Below, piece by piece: positions 2,174-20,000 of a stretch of DNA of 20,000 nucleotides. This DNA is from Pseudogymnoascus verrucosus (taxonomy: Eukaryota): the NCBI GenBank assembly GCA_001662655.1, contig KV460211.1; one strand, written 5' to 3'. A program made the position numbers and the translations under genes. Position 1 is the first letter of the stretch. Each line of letters opens with the position of its first letter. Below the pieces are notes generated by a model, which did no database searches, was not told the DNA's origin, and saw only the letters and a list, made by a program, of their open reading frames with translations.

Positions 2174-2325
2174 TATCCACCACCCGTTTGCTGGAGGCCG
2201 CAAGAGTGCTCCTGGTAGTTCATCGGATTTACCACACGTCAAATAATTAATCCAATACAACCAAGAACAACCAAACTCAAACCTCCACATATTTTAGTAG
2301 CTTACTACTTTTAACATACTAAAAT

Positions 2326-3918
2326 ATGGCACCACACGCTGACAATGGCACTGGTGTTGCAAACGGGAACGGTGCTTCCCCCGTCAAGGACCTTTTCACG
2401 GTCAACAGCCCAAACGTCGTGTACACCGACGAGACTATCAAGTCTAAGTACACGTACTGCACCACCTCTGTCTCTAAGGATGAGGCTGGCAAGTACGTTG
2501 CTACCCCCAAGGAGACCGTCTACGACTTCAAGGTCGAGCGTGCCATCCCCAAGACCGGTATGATGCTGGTCGGTCTCGGTGGTAACAACGGTTCCACCGT
2601 CACCGCTGGTATCATTGCCAACCGCCGCAACCTCACCTGGCCCACACGTGAGGGAAACCGTACTGCCAACTACTACGGTTCCGTCACCATGGCCTCCACC
2701 ATGAAGCTCGGTACGGATGCAAAGACCGCCAAGGATGTCAACATCCCCTTCCATGACGTTCTCCCCATGGTCCACCCCAACGACCTTGTCGTCGGCGGAT
2801 GGGATATCAGCTCCATGAACCTGGCTGATGCCATGGACCGTGCTGCTGTCCTTGAGCCCACCCTCAAGGCCATGGTCAGCAAGGAGATGGCTGCCATGAC
2901 CCCGCTCCCATCCATCTACTACCCGGATTTCATTGCCGCCAACCAGGAGGACCGTGCCGATAACCTCATTGCCGGCTCCAAGGCCTGCAACGAGCACGTC
3001 GAGAAGATCCGCAAGGACATTGCCGACTTCAAGGCCGCCAACAACCTTGACAAGGTCATTGTCATGTGGACTGCCAACACTGAGCGCTTTGCTGAGCTCA
3101 TTCCTGGCATCAACGACACTGCCGACAACCTGTTGAAGGCCATCGCTGACGGACACGAGGAGGTTGCTCCTTCCACCGTCTTCGCTGTTGCCTGTATCCT
3201 CGACAACGTGCCATTCATCAACGGCTCCCCCCAGAACACCTTCGTTCCGGGTGCCATTGACCTTGCCGAGAGACACGGTGCGTTCATCGGCGGTGACGAC
3301 TTCAAGTCCGGGCAGACCAAGATGAAGTCCGCCCTCGTCGATTTCCTGATCAGCGCCGGTATCAAGCTCACCTCCATCGCCTCGTACAACCATCTTGGTA
3401 ACAACGACGGCAAGAACCTGAGCTCCCAGCGCCAGTTCCGCTCCAAGGAGATCTCCAAGTCCAACGTCGTCGACGACATGGTCGAGGCCAACCACATCCT
3501 GTACAAGGAGGGTGAGCACCCCGACCACACCGTCGTGATCAAGTACATGCCCGCTGTTGGTGACAACAAGCGTGCCCTCGACGAGTACTACGCCGAGATC
3601 TTCATGGGCGGCCACCAGACCATCTCCCTCTTCAACGTGTGCGAGGACTCCCTCCTCGCCTCCCCGCTCATCATCGATCTCGTACTCATCGCCGAGCTCA
3701 TGACCCGTGTCTCCTGGAAGGCTGAGGGTGGCGAGTACAAGGGTTTCCACTCTGTTCTCAGCATCCTGTCCTACATGCTCAAGGCCCCGCTTGTGCCCAA
3801 CGGAACCCCAGTTGTCAACGCCCTCGCTAAGCAGCGTGGTGCCTTGACCAACATCTTCCGTGCCTGCGTCGGTCTCCAGCCCGAGTCTGACATGACTCTT
3901 GAGCACAAGCTTTTCTAA
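2326..3918 (+). CDS. INO1: Myo-inositol-1-phosphate synthase (inositol-3-phosphate synthase), 530 aa, no intron in the CDS
   Basis: MIPS signature motifs [46 protein letters not shown]; strong C-ending codon bias typical of a highly expressed gene. Confidence 0.98.
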
Positions 3919-4900: not shown

Positions 4901-5225
4901 CCATTAGCTCCCACATCGGGTAACTGACTAGTAGTGTAGTCTAAATTCTCATTCTGTCTATTCCAAAATGCCTTTATATAAACATCCCCATCCATCCAAG
5001 CATCCTATTCTCCATCATCAAAGTCTCATCCGTCCTTGCTTGCCGCAACTTCTTTATTTATTTATTTTCCCTCGACCTGTTCGGAGCTGGTTTTACTCGA
5101 CTCGACTAGATCAGGGATTATTATTATCAAAATACATCGCCTTGATCGGCCTGTAAGGTGAGATTGTGAGGCTTTGCAAGAGCCGCGAGCGACGCTTTTT
5201 CATGATGCCCGCCTGGAGCTGTCAC

Positions 5226-5825
5226 ATGGGGGAGTCGTCCATAGAATCGCACCTCGCAGAATTGCAAATAGCAGAACTGCCCTCTGTAGAACTACTGTCC
5301 GCAGAGTCGCTTTTCGAAGAACCACCCTCCGAAGAATTGTCCTCTGAAGAATCGTCCTTTGTCGTCCACACTACGTCCTCGTTGCTGAATCCGGCTCTAT
5401 CCTCGTCACCAAATCGCACTACAAGCCCCTATTTAGATAGAGCTGAACCGCAGCCACAGCTCAGTAGCCCTTGCTATTCGCCATTCGACCATCTACCTAT
5501 GGAACTATTCCAACTCATAATCTCATTTCTCCCTCCTCTAGCCGCCGCTTCACTTAGCCTGACATGCCGGTCAGCCCAGTCTATCATCCGAACCAAATAC
5601 TTCGATCAGCTCCAAGGAAAAGATTGGCGTAAGAGAAGACTTGAGTTCTTACATCTCCTAGCGAGAGGTCTGCCTGCCCACATCGTGTGCATTGCATGCG
5701 AAACCCTCCACAGCCGTACACAGAAGCAACTCCACAAAGCGACGCCCTGCAAGAAAGAAGAGCGGACGGGGTGCCCAATTCTCTTCAGTCTATGGTCGTA
5801 TGTGAAAGATACACGTGTAGTCTAA
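5226..5825 (+). pseudogene. F-box domain protein, 3'-truncated at about 5758 by a 5S rRNA fragment
   Basis: F-box motif SPFDHLPMELFQLIISFLPPLAAASLSLTCR and a CxxCxxLH motif shared with the 13550-14663 paralogue; the last ~20 codons are read from the antisense 5S fragment and its flank; start codon uncertain. Confidence 0.75.
5759..5803 (-). pseudogene. 5S rRNA gene fragment (5' 45 nt only)
   Basis: - strand ACATACGACCATAGACTGAAGAGAATTGGGCACCCCGTCCGCTCT matches the Pezizomycotina 5S 5' end (ACATACGACCATA...CCCGTCCGCTC); 3' half absent. Confidence 0.85.
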
Positions 5826-6196
5826 TTTAAGTAGGTTGATGTGACATGAAACCACTAAGCACTCTTCTCCGCTGTTCGCGTCCCTGTAACTCGGATCATG
5901 CCTAGGATCTTGTGCTAGTGTTACTGGTTCCTGCTTCGGGGTGGCGAGAAGTGGTGGTTGCTTGGATGACCCACCCCCCTCCTTTGACCTCACTCCTTAC
6001 GAGGTAGACAAATTTTAGGAAATTTTAATCGATGTTTAAGGAATTTTAATTGATTAAGGAAAGTCCGGCAATTTTTGGGCTATACACACGCGTTTGAGAC
6101 ATGGTAGAAAAACATTAGTTTTTTGCGCTCCTACTAGCTGTCTATTCGACGGTTCATGGGATAGACAACTGCTCTCTACCTACGAGCCCCTGATAG

Positions 6197-7161
6197 CTAT
6201 GTAGACTTGAAGAAATTTCTCATGTCAACATTCTTGTCAAAAACTCCCACCGCTGCAGCAGATCGACTCTTTGTGGCTACGTCTTTGATCCGTTGGTTGA
6301 CTTCTCCAACAACACTCTCCGGCATTCCTACCAAAACCTTTGAATCATCGGAAGTTATGACGTTACTGATATCCTGACGGGTCCGTTTAGGCTGCACTTG
6401 TGAGAAGATGACTACAGAGGAAACTTCGTCAGCCTCCAATAGGCCTTTCTGCTTCTCGACCTCTTGTGTGGCTAGGGCTCGCTGAGCACCGCCATCTTCT
6501 TCGTCCTCTAGCTCCTCCTGCAGATCTTGCATACGTCTTTGTGCTTCATCCTGCTGCTTCTTAGCGAGATCTATATGTTCTTGGATCTGTGTCTCGAGAG
6601 CCTGCAATTGGGTCTTTAGTTTCTTGCGATCAGTCCCTGACGTTCGTTCAGAGCGGAGTTGAACGATTCTTTCCAGGGCGTCAGCATGCATTCGTGATCA
6701 TGATGTCAAGGGCTCACCTACAACTGGGTACTTGTAATTGCAAACTGAACTGTGTCCTGGCAAGACTGAACCTGCATTCTAAAAGTCCGGATTTTCTCCT
6801 TGTTCCAAACGCCGACTGAAAATCGGTCTCTAAGTGAGATTTTTGTACTGGTAGAATGTTTCGTCCACCGCTTTAGATTGTCTGCAAAGTCGGCACATGC
6901 CTGCCCACAGTTGTTAACAGCTTCGACGATACCGGTTTTCTCCAGATCCACTTTCGCTGCGACATAAATCGTGGGGTCTGAAATGGTGAGTTTTTCCAGA
7001 GCTGCCAACGGGCGCTGTACGCCTTCTAAGGTCAAGGCAATATCTCGTGCGACTTCTTCAGCCTCGGCAAGATCGTTAATATTATCATAGAGTTGGGCAA
7101 TGCTGGACATAGCAAACTGTGTGATGCCTATGGCGCCTGCGGTGATGCTGAGGGGATCCAT
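6197..7161 (-). CDS. HeLo-like (HELL/SesA-type) cell-death effector with C-terminal two-repeat HET-s-related amyloid motif; exons 7161-6722 and 6668-6197; 303 aa
   Basis: N-terminus MDPLSITAGAIGITQFAMSSIAQLY is typical of fungal STAND N-terminal/HeLo-like domains; a 53-nt intron (6721-6669, GTAGGT...GCTGAC...AAG) joins the two ORFs in frame (..STQL-IVQLRSER..); coiled-coil linker, then R1 and R2. Confidence 0.85.
6200..6379 (-). other. Putative prion-forming (amyloid) domain: R1 6376-6326, R2 6295-6245, aromatic tail NFF
   Basis: R1 QDISNVITSDDSKVLVG and R2 QRIKDVATKSRSAAAVG, 27-aa period; pattern parallels HET-s R1 NSAKDIRTEERARVQLG and R2 NSVETVVGKGESRVLIG. Confidence 0.8.
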
Positions 7162-7576
7162 AAGCTCTGCACTTCGGATTTATTCTAAGATTTGGTAAAT
7201 GACTGCCATATAGAACCAGAGGAACGGCTACAGAGGAGGCAGGATATTCGTTTGATAGATGACTATTTACGAATGAATTCTGAGGAAACAAGAAAAAGAT
7301 GACCGTTGGGGGACAGCAATGAACTTTATTTGGCCTCCCCCCAGCTAAAGGCAACACTGCGGGGTTGTAGCGAATCATCGTGTCTAACTTACTGTAGCTG
7401 GAAAATGAGCCTAACGAGGCATTTTCTTTCAACTGAGACCCAGCTTGAATTGATAATGATACAGTCTTTGCCAAACATTCCTGGAGATCTTGATACACTA
7501 TTAGCGTGACGGCACTACAAGGACTGACTCTCGCACGACTAGCAAAGGCGGGGCTGTTATCGTCGCGCCAAAGCCG
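7162..7576. promoter_or_regulatory. 415-bp divergent intergenic region, probable bidirectional promoter of the effector and NLR
   Basis: ATG at 7161 (-) and ATG at 7577 (+) face away from each other. Confidence 0.55.
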
Positions 7577-10500
7577 ATGGCAGGCATCACTCAAGACATT
7601 AGCAGCGTATTCATCGACCACCATTCACGGGGCGCTGTGGGTACCTTTCACGCACCAGTGTATTTTGGGAACAAAGAAAGTGAGTAAATGTAGTTTTACG
7701 CAAATGACAAGGCTAACCAGTAGTTTAGACTTTTATGATGTGCTCAACACCCTTCCTAATGCCGTGAACGCGCGATTCAACGCATATCAGCGACAACATG
7801 ACCCGACCTGTCTCCCCAATACCCGCGTCGACCTTCTTCAAGATATATACAGCTGGGCTGACGGCCAAGATGAGCGATATATCTTCTGGCTAAACGGTCT
7901 GGCCGGCACGGGGAAGTCGACAATTGCGCGTACCGTGGCCCGTAGATACCACGAGCAGAAGCGCCTCGGAGCCAGCTTCTTCTTCTCGCGAGGCGGTGGA
8001 GATGTGGGCCACGCAGGCATCTTCGTCACAAGCATTGCGTTGCAGCTGGCGAGCAGCGTGCCCTCTCTCGACCAGTACATTTGCGATGCAATCAAAGAGC
8101 GGCGCGACATCGCGAGCCAGTCTCTCCGCGATCAGTGGCAGCAACTCGTCGTACGTCCCCTGTCGAAGCTTAGCGGAAGTGGAAGTGGTGGCCCGTTCCC
8201 ATACATTCTCGTGGTTGATGCGCTCGATGAGTGCGACAATGACAAGGACATTCGCACCATCGTTAACCTCTTGACTGAAGCTCGATCGCTCAACGCCGCG
8301 TGTTTGCGGGTCTGTCTAACGAGCCGATCTGAGGTTCCAATTCGAAACGGATTTGGTGAAGTGCCAGACGTTGAGCACCGGGACTTTGTACTTCACACCA
8401 TATCGCCACAGATCGTAGACCGCGATATCTCTCTTTTCCTACAGCACAACCTCAAGCTCATCGGAAAGGAACAATCTCTAGGCATCGACTGGCCCGGCGC
8501 AAAAGTTATCGAACAATTTGTTCAGATCGCCGGAAGTTTGTTCATTTGGGCAGCAACAGCATGTCGATACATTCAAGATGGCCTATGCGCAGGCGAGAAT
8601 CTGCAAATTTTGCTAGGAGGCAGCACATGTACCACTGCACCAGAAGAGCACCTGAATGAGCTCTATACTACTGTACTCAGAAGGTCTGTTCATCAGCATT
8701 ACTCAGTAATAGAGAAGAAAGCACTATACAGCATGCTACAGCGCATTCTTGGGAGCATTGTTGTTCTCTTCTCCCCGCTCACTGCCAGTTCGCTTCGCAG
8801 GCTACTTGATATCGATAAAGACAAGATTAACCAGGCGTTAAAGGATCTTCATGCAATTCTGGATATCCCTAGGGACGATGCTCACCCACTTTGCCTGCAT
8901 CATCCTTCATTTCGCGACTTCCTGCTCGACCCTAAAAGATGCGCAGATAAAGATTTCTGGGTGGACGAGGAGCAAGCGCATCAAATCTTAGCCGACAGAT
9001 GTATACAGCTCATGTCGATATCGCTCAAGCAAGACATCTGTGGTGTAGGTGATCCCGGCATACTTGTAGCCGATGTCGAGAGAAGTTTCATTAAGCAAGG
9101 TGTTTCTCCCGAAGTTCAGTACGCCTGTTGCTACTGGATGGATCATGTTCAGAAGAGCGGCACTCAACTCCGCGACAACGATCAAGTACATGTTTTCTTG
9201 CAAGAGCATCTTCTTCACTGGCTGGAGGCTCTTGGATGGATAGGAAAAATCTCAGATGGTGTTCATGCCATGGCATCTTTAGAGTCATTTGTTTCAGTCA
9301 GTAATATATGCTACAACTTAGGGAAAGGTCTCGCTAACAGTGTAGATAGACTAGTGAATGCCCAGGACTCTGGAGCTTCGTTCACGATGCGAAGCGGTTC
9401 GTGCTGTATAATCGAGTAGGGATCGAGCAGTCTCCGCTCCAGACGTACGGTAGTGCACTTGTATTCGCACCAGCATCGAGCATAGTAAGAAAGAATTTCG
9501 AGTATTGCATACCTAAATGGATACAAAAGCTTCCAAGAGTAGAGAATGAATGGAATACCTTGCTGCAGGTGCTTGAAGGCCACATGCAGTCCGTCAACGC
9601 CGTGACTTTCTCGCCGGACGGCAAGATGATCGCGTCGGCATCGGACGACAAGACCGTCAAGTTGTGGGACCCTGCTTCGGGCGCGCTGCTGCAGACGCTC
9701 GTGGGCCATTCGGCCTCAGTCCACGAATGTACGTTCTTACCCAACTCCAAGAGCCTGATATCGATATCGCTAGATGGGGAGGTCAACGTCTGGAATAGTG
9801 GCACAGGAGATTTGCTCCTTAAGCTTAGTGATTCGACAGCAGTCAACTCCGCCGTTTCTCATAACAAGGAAGTGGTACCGCTGTCTGGTACCTTGCAAAA
9901 ACCAGCAATTGTACAGCACGTGAGCTTTTCTAGCACAGTTTATGCCAACTTAATATCACCTAACGGCAAGCTGCGTGCGTCATGGTCAAACAGAAACGTC
10001 ACGCTACGGGATACCAACTCGGGAGCAGAAATTTGCACGCTTAATCAGAGCCCCTTTTTTCCAGTTAAGGCTATAGGCTTCTCGCAGGACAACAAGATGC
10101 TAGCGCTAGTGTCTAGCAACGAAGTCACGCTATGGGATACTAAATTGGGAGCAGAAATTTGCACGCTTAATCCGACCCTTTGGGACCCAGTTAAGACTAT
10201 AAGCTTCTTGTGGGACAACAAGATGCTAGTGTTATTGTCAAACAGAGAAGTTACACTATGGGATACTGAATCAGGAACACAGCGTTGTATGCTTAAGGAC
10301 CTTTGCTGCGAACTAGTTGAGGCTATAGGCTTCTCGCAGGACAGCAAGATGCTAGTGTTAGTGTCAAGTAGAGAAGTTACGCTATGGGATACGGAATCAG
10401 GAGCGCGACTTTGCAGGCTTAGGGACCTTTTCAACCTAGTTGAGGCTATAGGCTTCTTGCAGGACAGCAAAATGCTAGTGTTAGTGTTAAACAGAGAAGT

Positions 10501-11965
10501 TATGCTATGGGATATCAAATTAGGAGCAGAACTCTGCAGGCTTAAGGACCTTCAGTACCTAGTCGAGGCTATGGTCTTGTCACAGGACAGTAAAATGGTA
10601 GCGTTGGTGTCAAACAGAGAAGTTACTCTATGGGATACCAACTTAGGAGCAGAACTTTGCAGGCTTAAGGGCGTTCAGGGCCTAGTTAAGGCTATAGCAT
10701 TCTCACAGGACAACAAAATAGTAGCATTAGTGTTTGACAGAGAAGTCACGCTACAGTATACCAACTCAGGAGCAGAAGTTCGCAGGCTCAGGGGCGTTCA
10801 GGGCCCAGTCAAGGCTATGGGCTTCTCGCACGACAGAAAAATGCTAGCGTTGGCTTCTAGTACGACGGTTATACTGTGGGAGATTAGCACAGGAAAGGTA
10901 ATTCAGACATTTGAACGCTATGCAGGGGTAAAGTTTGCCAAAGCTACTTCTTTAGACGGCAAGCTACGAGCAGAGGTATCGGGCTCTAGGGTAGTCAGGC
11001 TCCGGAATGATGTTTCGGGAGAGGGATTTCGATCGCTTGAAGGCCATTCTAATCAGATTATAGCCCTTGACTTCTCTCCAGATACCAAGTTGCTGGCATC
11101 GGCATCGAGGGACAGAACGGTCAGGCTATGGGACACCGGCATAAAGCCAGCTCTCCCTTCACTTGATGCACACTGGGATTACGTCACTGCGTTGACTTTC
11201 TCGCCAGATGGCAAGTTTTTGGCGTCCGCAGCGAATGACTGCAGAGCGAAGGTGTGGGACACTGACAAAATAGCACTACTCAGAAATTTTACCGTTCATT
11301 TGGGTCACGTTAATAACATGATCTTCTCGCCAGATAGTAAGCTGCTGGCGTTAGCATCGACTGACGGTACAATCTCTCTACGAAAGGCCGCTGAGGGAAC
11401 AGTTGTTGAGACTCTAAAAGGCCATTCAACATGCATCATTGCAATGGCTTTCTCACCAGATGGTAAGAGACTGGCGTCGGCATCAGGCGATAAAGCAGTT
11501 AAGCTGTGGGATGCAGCAATGGGAAAGGAGCTTAAGACGCTCCAGGATCCTTCGGACCGGGTCAACGCCGTTGGCACCGTTGGCTTCTCACCGGACGGCA
11601 AGACGGTCGCGTTGGCATCGAGCAACAAGACCGTCAAGCTGTGGGACACCGCCTCGGGCGTCCTGCTACAGACGCTCAAGGGCTATTCTGGCCCCATCAA
11701 TGCTGTGGCCTTTTTGCCAGACGACAAGATACTCCACACGAACAGAGAAACCCTACTTATTTCCTTATCTTCTTCTGGCACGTCTGAAGCCCAAACACTG
11801 CCTCCGCCTTCCATTTCCATCGAAGGACATTGGGTGCTTCGCCGTACCAAACGGATCCTTTGGCTTCCTCCCGACCATCGACCAAGGGTCACCACTATTC
11901 ATGGAAGCACCATTGGTTTTGGGTACACATCTGGGAGAGTTGCAATAATTAAGTTGGCTCCATGA
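7577..11965 (+). CDS. Fungal NLR, NACHT-WD40 (NWD2/HET-E-like) with N-terminal amyloid R0 motif; exons 7577-7679, 7729-9296, 9350-11965; 1428 aa
   Basis: Walker A GLAGTGKST, Walker B ILVVDALDEC, GASFFF, HPSFRDFL, LLHWLEAL, DAKRF..PLQTYGSALVFAP, canonical GH..FSPDG..LWD repeats; introns 7680-7728 (GTGAGT..GCTAAC..TTTAG, phase 1) and 9297-9349 (GTCAGT..GCTAAC..ATAG, phase 0) both restore frame. Confidence 0.9.
7592..7642 (+). other. R0 amyloid signalling motif QDISSVFIDHHSRGAVG in NLR exon 1
   Basis: Exon 1 translates to MAGITQDISSVFIDHHSRGAVGTFHAPVYFGNKE and shares Q-x-I-x-x-V-x5-S-x3-V-G with R1 and R2 of the adjacent gene. Confidence 0.8.
9986..10855 (+). repeat. Seven tandem, mutually similar atypical WD40 units (126,126,126,123,123,123,~123 bp)
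   Basis: Unit starts at 9986, 10112, 10238, 10364, 10487, 10610, 10733; consensus SNREVTLWDTxxGAELCRL-variable-VxAIGFSQDxKMLxLV. Confidence 0.9.
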
Positions 11966-12510: not shown

Positions 12511-12571
12511 CAAGCTTGTGTATGGCAGAGCGGACGGGATGCCCAATTCTCTTGAGTCTATGGTCGTATGT
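12511..12571 (-). pseudogene. 5S rRNA gene fragment (5' ~61 nt)
   Basis: - strand ACATACGACCATAGACTCAAGAGAATTGGGCATCCCGTCCGCTCTGCCATACACAAGCTTG, then divergent sequence; TATTTAG at -30 to -24; 43/45 identical to the 5759-5803 copy. Confidence 0.85.
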
Positions 12572-12622
12572 GATTGTTATGCGTGTGTCGGGGACTAAAT
12601 ACTGATGTTCTGTGTGTGGAGG

Positions 12623-13549: not shown

Positions 13550-14663
13550 TCATTGCAGTTTAAGCCTAAACATGTCTGCTTTATATTTAGGGGTTAACAA
13601 GCTAGCTATATCAGCATCTGCTCCTTCATGCCCAGCTTTAATAAACCCTGCCTTAAATGGCAGCATCACGTCGTTTTCATTGTGACGAAGATGGCTTCTA
13701 TATTTGCTGTCTAGTAGATTCCAGCCTTCACCCAAGTCTAACCAACGCGTCAGTATTAACGCTACACCATGTTCAAAAGTTCATGGCGTCAATCTGGAAC
13801 TCCGTAGGGCAGTCCATGCATTGGAAAAGGCCTGAGCAATTTAGGCATCCGGAATTGAGCTGTGCATTATCCCAGTGGCTTGCACGACAGGACATTTTTG
13901 TTCTAAGCTCCATCGAATGTGGCGTTATGAAATACCAATGAGAACAAACACATGCGTATGTCCTATCAGGGACCTCTATCTTCCTCCCAACTGGGAAGAG
14001 AAGCCAGGTTTGGTGCCGTAGCAAGAAATGACCATTTGCAATCCGCGGGGCGAACTTTTTGTGAAATATATGCTGAACGTCGGAAGCTCTGCGAAAGGGA
14101 ATCGAGCGGAATCCGGATAGTGAAGAGAGCTGGTCGTCGCAATTAAGGCCGCTATGGTGAAGCTTCATAGCTAAGAGAAATGCAACAGAGTTGAATTTTT
14201 CGTGGATATACCAAGTAACAGATGACGCACGATCTGCTAACGTACACCGCATCGGCTTGCTCTGTAATCTCAAGTATTCTAGCTGGGGCCGACTATGGAG
14301 TACCTCGCACTCGAGGCATAATATGTGCCTTGGCAGATCTCTCTGCAGGAGATCTAAGAAAACAGCTCTGTCAACCCCATCAGCCACCCGAAGCTGATCG
14401 AGGTATTGGCTCCCTAGGATAAACCAGATTGGCCGGCAGGTGAGAGTAAATGAAGCGGCGGCTGAGAGGGGAAGAAATTCGGCTATAGACCCAATGAGCT
14501 CTGCTGGTAGTCGATTGAAAGGTGAGTTCTCAAGACTGCTTGGCTGAGATTGCGATTCAACAGTATCTGGTGATGGGGATATTGTGTGGGCGTGCGAGGA
14601 GGATCTTCTCCGAATGAACGAGAGGTATTTCAATAGCCCTATCGGATGCTTGAAGAGCTCCAT
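13550..14663 (-). pseudogene. F-box domain protein with a frameshift at about 13775 (about 370 aa if repaired)
   Basis: F-box SPFNRLPAELIGSIAEFLPLSAAASFTLTCR and Cys motifs; the ORF stops at CPTEFQIDAMNF* but protein-like sequence continues in another frame as EHGVALILTRWLDLGEGWNLLDSKYRSHL... to the stop at 13550; likely start MELFK at 14663 (upstream in-frame ATG at 14759). Confidence 0.75.
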
Positions 14664-14813
14664 TTTGATAACACTTGATTTAGTCGAGTGCAGAATATGT
14701 GGCCGTGAGAAAGGATGGGCGAGGGTTAAGATTTCATGGGACAACGATCCTTGAACCATGTAGATATTTATATATTTGCGATTTGAGAATGGGGGGGATA
14801 AGTAATAGTTGCA

Positions 14814-14900
14814 GTAATTAGTTTAACTAGATTTTTAAGAGTCATCTTTCGATGAGGCTATTTTGGTTTTATCACACCACTCTAGAAACATAGCGTCCCT
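14814..14900 (-). repeat. Second copy of the conserved non-coding element, upstream of F-box gene 2; TATATAAA (- strand) at 14767-14774
   Basis: 14834-14879 is an inverted match to 4835-4883, whereas 14871-14900 is a direct match (25/30) to 4795-4824. Confidence 0.75.
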
Positions 14901-16264: not shown

Positions 16265-19200
16265 CTACGCACTATCCAGCGTCTTCGGCGTCACCGGCGT
16301 GCTCTGCGCACGCCCAATGATAGAGCGACCAAGACTCTTCAGCTTCCCGACTGCCTCAGGCGGGCCATCGACATAAATGCTCGTGGCCTCCTTAACCTTG
16401 ACCTTACAGCACAAAGTCGAGAAGAGAAACTGGTCACCATTCGCGTCCATCAGCGGCAACGTGCGGTATCCCTGCTTCAAGCTCCCCAACTTCGCCGTAT
16501 ACGTCGCCAGCGGCGTGCCGCGGTCGTCGTAGCTATGTCCATCGCGCGACGCGCGCACCGTCCAGCGCACGAACACGAGGTCGGGGTACTTAGTCGTCAG
16601 CGCGAACTTGAATTTCTGGTTGAAGAGCGGATTGAAACCGTTCTCAGGCACGATCTGGGTGCGCAGGCGGCGCGGGGCGCCGAGACCAGAGGAACCGCCG
16701 CGGCCGGCGGCGTCGGGTCCGCCTTCGCCTACTACGCCTGCGACGTCTTTGGCTTTGTCGTCGGCGTGGAAGACTTCGACTTCGACGTAGGGGTCGACGG
16801 TGCGGGTGGCGGGGAGGTTCTTGGGTCGCATGAGCTGCTGCGCGGAGATAACCTCGATGCTGAAGGTGACCAGCTTGCGCTCTCGCTTGACGTAGCCCTC
16901 GCCAGCGGCCTCGGGGACATTGGGGAGCATGGTGATCTCGCGCAGGCCGCTGGGCTTGAGAACGTAGCCGGAAACATCGGTGCCGCCTTCGAACATGGCA
17001 TCGTTGATCTGCATGCCAAGATCGTAGGTCTGCCAGTTAAGCGCGGCCATCTGCACGCCACGGCGCCAGTAGGTCAGCGGATCGAAGTTGGTCGAGGCGA
17101 CGCGCCACCCGTTGGGGTACACGCGCATCATGTGGCGCATGTTGTGGCGCACGAGCGCGCGCTTGGTGTCGGGCGTCTTGCTGTTCTTCGTGAATGTCGC
17201 TTCCATGAAGGAGTAGATGTGGTTGTAGGTCTTGCTCTCTGGCGTGTCGAAGCCGTGGAACTTGACGCCTGCGGTGTACACCCCTAGGTCGCCGAGAACC
17301 TTGACAATGTTGCTCTGCTGCTTGCGCTTCTCGGAACCGTCGTCGTTCATGCTCTCGCTCTCGCTCGTGCTGTTGCTCAGGCTGTCCTGGCTCTCGCCGG
17401 CATGTTGGGGGGATCGTATGCTTGTAGTCTGACTGCGGGTGATGCCCATGGTGGGACGTTGGCGAGGGCTCATCGGTGGGCTTTGCAGGATCGACGCGTT
17501 TGGGATCATGGTGTTGTCAAGCACGATCGGTCGCACGTACGGAGAGTTGACGCTGGCTCCGCGTCTCCGGCCAGCTGTCACCTCGGCGTTGAAGGCCGGC
17601 TCATCACAAGGCATCTTGACCTTGATCAGGATGCGATTCATCAGCTGTGACGGGCTTGGCAGCTGCTGGGAGTTCGGGTCCAGTGGCTCAGTGACGAGTT
17701 TCGATCCGCAGGTCGCCTTGATGATCTCCGCCATCATGATTTGCTGCTGTCGGCTGCAGTGGACTTCGAGAGAGATCAACAGCGGGAACTGAGAGCTGAC
17801 GAAAGCATACTTGCTGATCGTAGTCATGACATCGGCGAACGAGACTTGGCTCGTCAGTGTCCTGCCGTGCATGACGACAGGACCCTCGCTGCCATCCCAG
17901 CAGTCGACCTCGACGCAGCGACAACCCTTCGACAGTGCTGAGATATAGGCCTCGACGCTCGATTGGCCTGCAACCTGCCTTCCTAGAAGGTACGTGTTAT
18001 GAGAGCTTGATATATAGTACTCGTGAAGTGGTCGGTCGAGGGTGAAGTTTGCTGGAACATCTTTAATCGGAACATTATATGTAGAGGTAAGGTAGCTCGC
18101 CAGAGCGGACTCGTTCATCAATGGAGTCTCGCCGTTTTGGAGGTCTTGCTGGGCTTGCTCCTTGGTCTTCGATCTCCGGACAAACTTGCTGAACACAGTC
18201 GTCCAGTGAGTGCGACGGCCCTCGACATCCTCACCTTGCGTGTCCTTCAAGAACACCAGGAAGTCCTCGAGGGTAATGCCCTTCTTATCCGGCACGGTGA
18301 GCTCGTTATACAGAGCCCGCACGTCCTCGCGCCTCTTCATGAGATTGATGAGCTCCTGGAACTGGCCATATGTAAGTAGCCCGCACTTCAGCTCATCGAC
18401 CTGGGCAAATTTGGCACGCAAATGATTGTTGACACCATGGATGTGTAAGCTCCGGCAAAGGCGCTCAACGCCTGTGATATCAATCATCTCCTCGTCCTCG
18501 GAGTGCGCCCTGTCGCCAAACTGCTTATTCATCTCACGACGCCAGTACGCGCGGACCGCCTTGTCGTTGAAGGACGACAGCGACGCCATCAACTCGTGTC
18601 GATGTTTCGAGATGGCATCGAGGGTAGTCGTCCATAGCTCAAAGGTCCTGTCATCACCGGCAATTAAATGCATCAATTTCTGCGATCGGCCTTTCGATTT
18701 ATCAGATATCACGTAGAGGATTGAGAAAAAGCGGCGTTCGTCACAGGCCGGCACGCCAAACTCTGAGCGATAATTCCGCGCGTCTGACCCCGAGCGAATT
18801 TCTTTGATGTCGTCAATGTAGAAAGCCTTTGACGGTCTGTTCTTGTCCCATGAGACCTTTGCGGCATCGATATCGAGAGCAAATGTAAGCAGCTTCCTCT
18901 TCTTCTTCGACACCTTGAGCATCGTTGTGCCCTGGAGAAGCACTGCCGGTATAACCGGACCGTCGTTGATGGGCACCCCAGAGATGGATCCAGTGGGGCT
19001 GCCATTGCTATAGTACTCCTTCATCCCATCAGCGAAGCCATTCATATCGTCTCGTGTATCATCTCGGCTCTCATCGTCGGACTCCGTGAGCAGCACTGGT
19101 CGGACCTCCGGCGCCGTGCTGGTGCTGTCACTTCGCCTCCGCATGATGACCGGTCCCGAGCTGTGATCGCGGCTATTGGCAGCGGCAGACGACTGTCGGC

Positions 19201-19591
19201 GGCGCCCAGCAAACTGAGAAGCCTTATTTGATAGTCTCCTGATGATGCCCGGACCTTTATTTAAAGCCATTGCCTCGCTCATGGCACTGTGGCTGTTCTT
19301 TCGGTGGACAATGGATTCGGGAAGCTCGAAGGGGGGTGGAAGGTCACTATCACAGCTGCCCTTGGGTAGGTCGGGCCCAGGTGAGCCCTGCACAGAGCTG
19401 TTGCTTGTTGTGAGTTGTGTCTGAGGGGAGAGTACCGGAGACGCCTGCTGCGAGCTGGACGTCAAGGAGGAGGCACTTATGGCGGAAGTGGGGACCGAGG
19501 TGGAGGGTATAGTAGGTAGGAAGCTCGTCTGAACTTTGGAGGGCATGGCACGCCGCGGCGGCTGCGCCGGTATGGTGGGTTGGTGAGCCAT
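16265..19591 (-). CDS. PLC1: Phosphoinositide-specific phospholipase C (PH, EF-hand, X, Y and C2 domains), 1108 aa
   Basis: X-box YISSSHNTYL, GCRCVEVDCWDG, HGRTLTS, ISLEVHC; Y-box RVYP..RVASTNFDP..W..GVQMAALNWQT, GYVLKP; C2 ISAQQL..DPYVEVE..NGFNP..LKQGYRTLPL. Confidence 0.97.
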   Translation of the reverse strand: MAHQPTIPAQPPRRAMPSKVQTSFLPTIPSTSVPTSAISASSLTSSSQQASPVLSPQTQLTTSNSSVQGSPGPDLPKGSCDSDLPPPFELPESIVHRKNSHSAMSEAMALNKGPGIIRRLSNKASQFAGRRRQSSAAANSRDHSSGPVIMRRRSDSTSTAPEVRPVLLTESDDESRDDTRDDMNGFADGMKEYYSNGSPTGSISGVPINDGPVIPAVLLQGTTMLKVSKKKRKLLTFALDIDAAKVSWDKNRPSKAFYIDDIKEIRSGSDARNYRSEFGVPACDERRFFSILYVISDKSKGRSQKLMHLIAGDDRTFELWTTTLDAISKHRHELMASLSSFNDKAVRAYWRREMNKQFGDRAHSEDEEMIDITGVERLCRSLHIHGVNNHLRAKFAQVDELKCGLLTYGQFQELINLMKRREDVRALYNELTVPDKKGITLEDFLVFLKDTQGEDVEGRRTHWTTVFSKFVRRSKTKEQAQQDLQNGETPLMNESALASYLTSTYNVPIKDVPANFTLDRPLHEYYISSSHNTYLLGRQVAGQSSVEAYISALSKGCRCVEVDCWDGSEGPVVMHGRTLTSQVSFADVMTTISKYAFVSSQFPLLISLEVHCSRQQQIMMAEIIKATCGSKLVTEPLDPNSQQLPSPSQLMNRILIKVKMPCDEPAFNAEVTAGRRRGASVNSPYVRPIVLDNTMIPNASILQSPPMSPRQRPTMGITRSQTTSIRSPQHAGESQDSLSNSTSESESMNDDGSEKRKQQSNIVKVLGDLGVYTAGVKFHGFDTPESKTYNHIYSFMEATFTKNSKTPDTKRALVRHNMRHMMRVYPNGWRVASTNFDPLTYWRRGVQMAALNWQTYDLGMQINDAMFEGGTDVSGYVLKPSGLREITMLPNVPEAAGEGYVKRERKLVTFSIEVISAQQLMRPKNLPATRTVDPYVEVEVFHADDKAKDVAGVVGEGGPDAAGRGGSSGLGAPRRLRTQIVPENGFNPLFNQKFKFALTTKYPDLVFVRWTVRASRDGHSYDDRGTPLATYTAKLGSLKQGYRTLPLMDANGDQFLFSTLCCKVKVKEATSIYVDGPPEAVGKLKSLGRSIIGRAQSTPVTPKTLDSA

Positions 19592-20000
19592 TGTGGTAGT
19601 GGGGGGAGGAGGAGGAGGTATAAATAATGGCGTTGCGGGTTCGAGGAACAGTATTGATAAGTGGAAGTTCGGTGGTGAAATATTTCGTTATAACGAGGCC
19701 ATCAGCGATAGCTTCGAGGGATCGCAGGGTAGGAGACTGCAGTGCCGAGCTACGACGAGCGAGCGGTATCTTTAATTGTCTTCATATTTCTTTCTCTGGG
19801 TGCCAATTTGACAGGGATTTGGGGGACCGGAGAGAAAGGCCCTTAAGTTGTCCACGCAGCCAACGCGTTCGGTCTGTCGTTCGGCGTGTCAGACGCAAGG
19901 CTGTCGAGGGAGGCCGTGTTATGTAGGCGTAGGTAGGGTCGTAATTGTATGTATATGCGGGCGTCTGACGGTCGACCTGCAGCCGGGGGGGGGGGGGGGG

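Follow-up and report, generated by a model that had tools for sequence, protein, structure and literature searches.

A 20,000-nt stretch of contig KV460211.1 from Pseudogymnoascus verrucosus (called the window throughout) contains two divergently transcribed genes, one predicted to encode a nucleotide-binding oligomerisation domain (NOD)-like receptor (NLR) and the other a small HeLo-like protein, hereafter the effector. Copies of a HET-s-related amyloid motif (HRAM) are found at the N-terminus of the NLR (r0) and at the C-terminus of the effector (r1 and r2). The two genes very probably form an amyloid-signalling pair of a filamentous ascomycete, of the HRAM2 type, which would work as set out below, the function being proposed by analogy with Podospora. 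The architecture is that of NWD2/HET-S and FNT1/HELLF, as the original prediction, made from the DNA letters, had it: an effector of the PF17111 family ending in a double repeat and, head-to-head with it, a NACHT-WD40 NLR that begins with r0.

Two open genes and three related motifs

The three peptides lie at the places and in the frames originally proposed for them, and all three carry the pattern Q-x-I-x-x-V-x5-S-x3-V-G that had been recognised as common to them (coordinates and sequences are collected in Table 1). In the effector, the Pfam model PF17111 covers residues 1-144 (E = 7.8e-18; 65.1 bits for a gathering cut-off of 27.2). The repeats r1 and r2 are encoded at the C-terminal end of the minus-strand open reading frame (ORF) 6697-6197, the last repeat lying 13 residues before the end of the protein. 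The junction of the two effector exons (...TSTQL/IVQLRSE...) is the same as in the 20 annotated homologues of the alignment.

In the NLR gene, r0 falls within the plus-strand ORF 7505-7687, the earliest in-frame ATG of which is at 7577. This 103-nt first exon, missed by ORF lists, had been recognised correctly from the sequence. It is collinear with the N-terminus of the homologue P0022 and aligns with residues 1-34 of the homologue P0032 (41% identity, E = 5.6e-5), and the second exon resumes at residue 36 of the same protein, with one junction codon between. The introns that had been proposed at 7680-7728 and 6721-6669 both show standard fungal signals and both restore the frame. The second NLR intron was found in this analysis: in the homologue P0022, exon 2 runs to residue 554 and exon 3 resumes at 555 (exon-3 residue 4 being residue 558), so that the alignment is unbroken across 9297-9349 and exons 2 and 3 are therefore contiguous in the homologue. 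The NACHT-type Pfam match begins at residue 39 of exon 2, and the Walker A motif lies about 90 residues from the start of the NLR, which leaves no room for another N-terminal effector domain, in agreement with the original prediction. Homologues of exon 2 number 2255 at E <= 1e-20, the best being 70% identical; the closest NACHT relatives (P0022, P0032, P0042 and P0048) begin with HRAM2-like motifs, with the spacing of the spliced NLR model. With open frames, canonical splice sites and collinear homologues, the module had rightly been called intact, at the level of sequence.

Two side observations concern the NLR. In most relatives, r0 is followed by a second conserved stretch with the consensus G-x-V-Y-F-G, represented here by HAPVYFGNKE (7649-7678); it falls outside the 21-residue HRAM frame, and no discussion of it was met in those parts of the HRAM literature available to us. 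Within the WD40 domain, the seven tandem WD-type units have canonical WD40 units of greater divergence on either side, and some of the seven show degenerate WD dipeptides (LRD, LQY).

Assignment to HRAM2 and conservation of the pairing

According to the text of Daskalov, Dyrka and Saupe 2015 (hereafter Daskalov 2015; Sci Rep 5:12494, PMC4518210), HRAMs are 21-residue pseudo-repeats with G at position 19, a hydrophobic residue at positions 5, 8, 16 and 18, and also at 10, where T is tolerated, and a preference for R/K at 15; the loop between the repeats measures 6-18 residues, and the effectors are HeLo, HeLo-like or SesA proteins of less than 310 aa that bear the repeats within their last 80 residues. 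The protein described here, a PF17111 member of 302 aa with a 6-residue loop, conforms to this description. G19 is present in r0, r1 and r2. The hydrophobic positions read I, V, T, V, V in r1 (Q3 I5 V8 T10 K15 V16 V18 G19), I, V, T, A, V in r2 (Q3 I5 V8 T10 A15 A16 V18 G19) and I, V, I, G, V in r0 (Q3 I5 V8 I10 R15 V18 G19). At the outward-facing positions 4, 6, 7, 11, 12 and 13, the charges of r1 and r2 are opposite at 4 (D/R) and 13 (D/R), the pairs at 6, 7, 11 and 12 are S/K, N/D, S/K and D/S, and like charges face each other nowhere; the opposite charges fit the in-register stacking described by Daskalov 2015. In the same paper, the motif of an adjacent NLR was found for 98 of 155 double-repeat proteins, which makes it common but not obligatory, and r0 motifs are reported to be poor in D/E/K and rich in S/H. 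Here r0 occupies residues 4-24 of an NLR whose ATG is 415 bp from that of the effector, and its composition (two H, three S, neither E nor K) matches the bias reported for the NLR side.

The original prediction had left it open if this was an HRAM family already described or a new one. The subfamilies are told apart at position 3: HRAM1 has N there, HRAM2 has Q and HRAM3 has H, while the marks of HRAM4 and HRAM5 are Q at 18 and 16 (PMC4518210). In the window, position 3 is Q in all three motifs, position 18 is V in all, and position 16 is V in r1, A in r2 and G in r0. Supplement file 2 of the same paper lists five orthologues of the effector (rows 34, 79, 87, 105 and 156), each with the r0 of an adjacent NLR, a 21-6-21 layout and a loop that reads ESVVGK, ASVVGK or EAVVGK. 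The protein in row 34 comes from Capronia epimyces and is our homologue P0004; its r0, SNQDISGVSITDHSRAAVGTF, shares 14 of 21 residues with the window r0. For Corynespora cassiicola, that supplement lists two proteins and no more, both of them HRAM2 in Table 1 of the paper, and one, Corca1_537746, is an orthologue of the window effector. Because of Q at position 3 and of the place of this orthologue among the HRAM2 proteins, the motif is, as judged from its sequence by the text rules and Table 1 of PMC4518210, HRAM2 and not a new family. The PP (NxGxQxGxN) and PUASM (FxGxGxQxxGxGxF) patterns, as given in a 2022 survey, are absent from r0, r1, r2 and their flanks; the sigma motif (about 40 aa), judged by length and layout only, does not fit; and no Pfam model, that of HET-s included, matches the motif regions.

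A database search with the second exon of the effector returned 21 proteins, 20 of which are 278-319 aa long and 53-84% identical. These 20 come from Leotiomycetes, Eurotiomycetes, Sordariomycetes and Dothideomycetes, and both repeats and the loop are kept in all of them; the top match, from Mollisia scopiformis, reaches 84% identity over exon 2. P0021 (1289 aa, fused or mispredicted) was excluded from all alignments, and P0010, P0012 and P0016 from A5 only. In the alignment of 21 effectors, I5, S14, G19 and P21 of r1 are invariant (21/21), as are I5, T10, S14 and G19 of r2 and both V residues of the loop. A phmmer search of 1.84 billion representatives with the last 77 residues of the effector gave 61 clusters at E <= 0.001; two of them, P0145 and P0174, are HeLo-like proteins of full length that carry the double repeat. 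Four long multi-repeat proteins (P0142, P0156, P0192 and P0202), which score by many weak stretches, were read as unrelated. The top match of this search is a V/I/D/E-rich protein of 1041 aa in which a unit of roughly 60 residues recurs about 13 times almost unchanged; it is probably a spurious translation or a repeat protein that has no relation to the effector.

The pairing itself is conserved. A scan of metagenome contigs yielded ten loci with effector relatives, seven of which have an HRAM-type C-terminus. At least 400 nt of upstream sequence is available in six of these seven, and in all six a head-to-head ORF starts with an r0-like motif. Three of these motifs were found by regular expression (L001, L006, L009) and three by eye (L002, L004, L005), the latter having escaped the expression because one position, or one residue of spacing, deviates. 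A NOD follows r0 in five of the six loci, as NACHT-ANK (L001, L005, L006), NACHT (L004) or P-loop plus TPR (L002); the contig of L009 stops before the NOD region. In L004 and L005, r0 and NACHT stand in one unbroken ORF, and r0 therefore belongs to the NLR there without any assumption about splicing. The r0 motif is also kept in a near-identical metagenome strain, whose contigs cover 7436-7615 and 7657-7837. Adjacency and co-conservation of the motifs, on which the original prediction had staked its reading, are thus found in the five catalogued orthologues and in 6/6 informative metagenome loci.

The motifs also vary together. With seven triplets of r0, r1 and r2, the summed BLOSUM62 score of each r0 against its own r1 and r2 is 348, compared with a permutation mean of 282 (standard deviation 25). 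The observed score is reached by 35 of 5040 permutations and by none of 1854 derangements. In L005, all three motifs have a hydrophobic residue at position 3.

The receptor, for its part, changes from locus to locus. A tblastn search with the NACHT region of the window found no close relative beside the effector in the ten loci, the sole match being a weak one in L005 (E = 5e-4). The NLRs that stand beside it have NOD and repeat domains of other types; therefore the receptor is not orthologous across loci, though r0 is kept. The amyloid motif can change as well. Two effector relatives, 70% (L007) and 60% (L008) identical over exon 1, end in a single NxGxQxG and have no HRAM2 repeats, and head-to-head ORFs upstream in L007 and L010 start with a matching PP-like motif; in L008, no NLR was found within 1.5 kb upstream. 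HRAM2 and PP tags thus sit on relatives of one HeLo-like scaffold, so that a single effector family bears two different amyloid signalling motifs.

Proposed mechanism and competing explanations

On the model of the HET-S/NWD2 and HELLF/FNT1 work in Podospora, the NACHT-WD40 NLR would sense a ligand via its WD40 repeats and oligomerise, and this oligomerisation would gather the N-terminal r0 motifs into a stacked cross-beta nucleus, akin to the HET-s beta-solenoid. On this r0 nucleus the r1-loop-r2 segment of the effector, natively unfolded, would be templated to fold as a two-rung solenoid, a change that may set free the N-terminal, hydrophobic helix of its HeLo-like domain, leading to plasma membrane targeting and cell death. 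The highest 19-residue Kyte-Doolittle mean in effector exon 1 is 1.35, at residues 4-22. An AlphaFold2 model of the last 77 residues places strands on r1 (18-26, 31-37) and r2 (44-53, 58-64), with a pLDDT of 84-88 over the block. When a profile of the effector family was compared with all sequences of the PDB, the HELLF prion domain 6EKA came out on top, spanning r1 and r2, at an E-value of only 0.083. From the same analogy we infer the templating driven by oligomerisation, the prion behaviour, the attack on the membrane and a role in immunity or incompatibility.

Several observations weigh against this reading. Two concern the motifs themselves: r2 does not have the preferred R/K at position 15, and G at position 16 of r0 is an exception to the hydrophobic rule. 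The Pfam model of the HET-s prion domain, PF11558 (HET-s_218-289), finds no match at E <= 1 in effector exon 2 or NLR exon 1; it matches only 38 of the 155 double-repeat proteins of PMC4518210. Since PF11558 is unmatched and position 3 is Q, the pair is not filed as HET-s/HRAM1. The three introns are predicted from splice signals and homology, and the four sequencing runs compared with the window, all of them contigs, show no joint at any of the three. A search of the HRAM2 literature, in so far as its text was available, found no experimental study of any HRAM2 member. The structural comparisons are weak as well. Foldseek returned no match at E <= 0.001 for the C-terminal AlphaFold2 model (best E 1.4), the HET-s structure 2RNM coming at rank 2 (E 2.5) and the HELLF structure 6EKA at rank 32 (E 7.5). 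VIA-align kept 2RNM and 6EKA among 61 chains, at weak Z scores of 2.3 and 2.1. A complex prediction for the last 77 residues of the effector and NLR exon 1, in which alignments were unused, scored 0.01 (mark 0.34) and speaks neither for nor against binding. A point against the reading, or one that it leaves open, is that the receptors beside the effector relatives are not orthologous to the window NLR.

Some of these results could be taken to mean that the three peptides resemble each other by chance or composition, that the effector tail is ordinary disorder and that there is no amyloid signalling at all. Pairwise identities are indeed only 8/21 (r0-r1), 8/21 (r0-r2) and 7/21 (r1-r2), and the structure searches of the C-terminal model are not significant. 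The common pattern occurs three times in the 564 six-frame ORFs of the window (at least 20 aa, 30,666 residues) and zero times in each of 1000 residue shuffles; since these three peptides had themselves supplied the pattern, the shuffle test is post hoc. An independent hidden Markov model, built from r1 and r2 of the 20 homologues with the window sequence excluded, ranks r0 as the top non-effector match in the window, but with only 7.5 bits and an E-value of 0.45 (2941 ORFs). The motif draws stronger support from the comparative evidence than from this model. Its invariant positions are held across four fungal classes. A loose expression for the motif gives 14 matches in 149,970 residues of six-frame ORFs, ten of them in r1 or r2 of effectors and four in head-to-head upstream ORFs, with none elsewhere, so that the non-effector matches all mark the start of such an ORF (4/4). 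Moreover, the effector family with its r0 partners had already been classed as HRAM in PMC4518210. Chance likeness of the peptides is extremely improbable.

A second explanation keeps the motifs but not the killing: they would mediate a non-lethal interaction, for instance recruiting a PigL_N protein of the pigment-cluster type to the NLR, instead of relaying a pore-forming death signal. It stems from names, since 'PigL_N' is the current Pfam name of PF17111 and the effector homologues bear the source name 'azaphilone pigments biosynthesis cluster protein', and also from the fold search, which gave the N-terminal domain only generic helical-bundle scores. The AlphaFold2 model of the HeLo-like domain is a helical bundle (pLDDT 78.9, pTM 0.76) for which Foldseek found nothing at E <= 0.001. 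In a structural search of 48,161 chains, cell-death four-helix bundles occupy four of the top nine rows, namely MLKL (4BTF, Z 8.5, root-mean-square deviation 3.1 over 100 aligned residues; 6UX8, Z 8.2), the CC-R domain of NRG1.1 (7L7V, Z 8.1) and the Rx CC domain (4M70, Z 7.9), but they tie with unrelated bundles, and such Z values are not decisive for helical bundles. The model search is compatible with the known HeLo/MLKL relationship, without demonstrating it. Other evidence speaks for the death signal. PF17111 is the model used in the 2022 survey for the HeLo-like domain, the family of HELLF and HELLP, and full-length HELLF has been shown to relocate to the membrane and to kill. Around the pair lie genes for an inositol-1-phosphate synthase and a phosphatidylinositol-specific phospholipase C, together with an F-box fragment, and no polyketide synthase or other pigment-cluster gene was found near the pair in the window; the flanking genes being housekeeping genes, the pair sits in an ordinary neighbourhood, outside any secondary-metabolite cluster. 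We therefore hold a non-lethal, pigment-related role to be very unlikely.

A third explanation accepts the architecture but supposes that the pair does not operate here, either because translation starts at the in-frame ATG at 7704 and leaves out r0, or because the effector answers an HRAM2 NLR encoded elsewhere, its place next to the present one being a relic. It takes up a further point that counts against the amyloid-signalling pair. This point comes from a related organism of the same study, a 4543-nt contig of which matches the window over 6100-7347 with 45 differences (mostly C>T and G>A) and one gap, the effector being about 96% identical. From 7347, that is 230 nt before the r0 exon, this contig is unlike the window and remains so for about 3 kb; its NLR partner may therefore differ or be absent, and the pairing would then not be a fixed one in close relatives. 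In addition, motifs of the NLR side and of the effector side co-occur in genomes without adjacency, according to the 2022 survey, and the best NACHT homologues in effector-bearing species are on contigs sized unlike that of the effector, which is a hint only, taken from the best 120 of 2255. Against a silent pair stand the r0 exon, which is open from its first ATG, has canonical signals for splicing and lines up with annotated N-termini, its presence in the near-identical metagenome strain, the position of r0 head-to-head with the effector in 6/6 informative related loci, and its co-variation with the cognate r1 and r2, although this last test rests on only seven triplets, with three r0 recognised by eye. 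That the pair is idle in the window is improbable, if a little less so than the two preceding explanations.

The same contig invites a further proposal, which concerns the evolution of the locus. Because the related organism diverges before r0, and because related loci use NACHT-ANK or P-loop plus TPR receptors, or a PP motif in place of HRAM2, the locus might be a polymorphic module for recognition, with a constant effector and an NLR partner exchanged between close relatives. We consider such partner exchange unlikely, but less so than a silent pair. If it were true, nothing but the amyloid tag would serve as a fixed 'address' while receptors and executioners were rapidly reshuffled; the pair could then act in allorecognition, as a het-like locus, and would be the first HRAM2 system amenable to experiment.

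Neighbourhood, known systems and significance

The region between the two start codons is presumed to be a shared promoter. Further out, the F-box ORF 5157-5825 looks, from its sequence, like a truncated duplicate of part of the ORF 13773-14822, because its continuation is found nowhere else in the window. A 60-nt direct repeat brackets the gene pair, and its left copy starts about where the F-box fragment loses homology to its paralogue. This repeat could be the footprint of an insertion or duplication. Rfam and tRNA scans of the window returned no match; the repeat is therefore not a known RNA gene or tRNA.

Table 1. Features of the gene pair and its surroundings in the window, with the PP-type relatives in other contigs
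Feature	Position	Strand	Remarks
Effector gene, predicted 302-aa HeLo-like protein	7161-6197	-	one intron; stop codon 6199-6197
Effector exon 1, HeLo-like (HELL) domain, starting MDPLSITAGAIGITQFAMSSIAQL	6722-7161	-	PF17111
Effector intron, 53 nt	6669-6721	-	GTAGGT..CTGAC..AAG; predicted from splice signals and protein collinearity with homologues
Effector exon 2, coiled-coil/acidic linker, then putative prion-forming region	6197-6668	-	
r1 repeat, TRQDISNVITSDDSKVLVGMP	6320-6382	-	HRAM positions 1-21
Loop ESVVGE	6302-6319	-	6 residues between r1 and r2
r2 repeat, VNQRIKDVATKSRSAAAVGVF	6239-6301	-	
Divergent intergenic region, 415 bp	7162-7576		between both start codons; shared promoter presumed
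NLR gene, predicted 1428-aa NACHT-WD40 protein	7577-11965	+	two introns; stop codon 11963-11965
NLR exon 1, 103 nt	7577-7679	+	34 codons plus 1 nt
r0 motif, ITQDISSVFIDHHSRGAVGTF	7586-7648	+	NLR residues 4-24
NLR intron 1, 49 nt	7680-7728	+	GTGAGT..CTAAC..TAG; predicted from splice signals
NLR exon 2, NACHT-type NOD	7729-9296	+	PF24883, E 3.1e-30; PF05729, E 1.3e-6
Walker A, GLAGTGKS	7896-7919	+	about 90 residues from NLR start
NLR intron 2, 53 nt	9297-9349	+	GTCAGT..CTAAC..TAG; found in this analysis
NLR exon 3, WD40 repeat domain	9350-11965	+	PF00400, E 1.4e-79, 8 stretches
Seven tandem 123-nt (41-aa) WD-type units	9985-10851	+	78% matches; inside WD40 domain
myo-Inositol-1-phosphate synthase ORF	2323-3918	+	flanking; PF07994, E 6.6e-144
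F-box ORF fragment	5157-5825	+	PF00646, E 2e-7
349-aa ORF, paralogue of F-box fragment	13773-14822	-	51% identity over 108 residues
Phosphatidylinositol-specific phospholipase C	16265-19687	-	flanking; X, Y and C2 domains
60-nt direct repeat	5759-5818 and 12527-12586		88% identical; bracketing gene pair; spacing 6768 nt start to start
PP-type effector relative	L007:403-1323	+	
PP-type effector relative	L008:9053-9622	+	
Upstream head-to-head ORF starting with matching PP-like motif	L007:112-2	-	
Upstream head-to-head ORF starting with matching PP-like motif	L010:194-105	-	

Among known systems, HET-S/NWD2 of Podospora anserina (HRAM1; 2RNM, 2KJ3) is the paradigm of the mechanism, in which two repeats of 21 residues form a two-rung beta-solenoid. 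The window pair resembles it in having r0 on a NACHT-WD40 NLR and in the divergent, adjacent genes; it differs in that HET-S has a HeLo and not a HeLo-like domain, N and not Q at position 3, and a match to PF11558. The loop between the repeats of HET-S measures 15 aa and is longer than the 6 residues found here.

HELLF/FNT1, also from Podospora anserina (HRAM5, 6EKA), is alike in its HELL domain, its C-terminal double pseudo-repeat and its adjacent NLR with an N-terminal motif. HELLF(209-277) forms a prion, and hellf adjoins the NLR gene fnt1. HELLF nevertheless belongs to another HRAM subfamily, the hallmarks of which are QxFG and Q-G, compared with Q-D/R-I and V-G in the window, and its profile match to the window effector family is the weak one given above. 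The work on HELLF leads one to expect cross-seeding barriers between HRAM subfamilies; HELLF and the window pair would therefore signal independently. HELLP/PNT1 of Chaetomium globosum likewise pairs an NLR with a HeLo-like effector that has an amyloid motif at its C-terminus, but this motif is a single pseudo-palindromic, RHIM-related PP motif and not a double repeat of the HET-s type, and the window effector has no NxGxQxG.

The closest likeness is to the HRAM2 pairs already catalogued. One of their species is given by the JGI code Karrh1, which we take to be Karstenula rhodostoma. The pairs are those of Capronia epimyces, Cochliobolus heterostrophus C4, Corynespora cassiicola, Karstenula rhodostoma and Westerdykella ornata (PMC4518210). 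The window pair shares with them the effector family (exon 2 is 59-71% identical to P0004 and Dothideomycete relatives), the 21-6-21 layout, the residues Q3/I5/V8/T10/S14/V18/G19, the conserved loop and the r0 of an adjacent NLR. Among the rows of that catalogue that were inspected, the window pair is absent. The NLR of the window is of the NACHT-WD40 type, in contrast to the NACHT-ANK or P-loop plus TPR partners of the related metagenome loci.

The pair thus adds one HRAM2 NLR/HeLo-like module to the published catalogue, in which the effector family and its r0 partners were already known. The comparative data reveal one effector scaffold combined with varied receptor types and even with varied amyloid motifs. 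A conserved HRAM2 family with a short, invariant loop could serve as a model to ask whether the HRAM2 fold is like that of HET-s and HELLF, and it could also show whether the HRAM subfamilies are insulated from each other.

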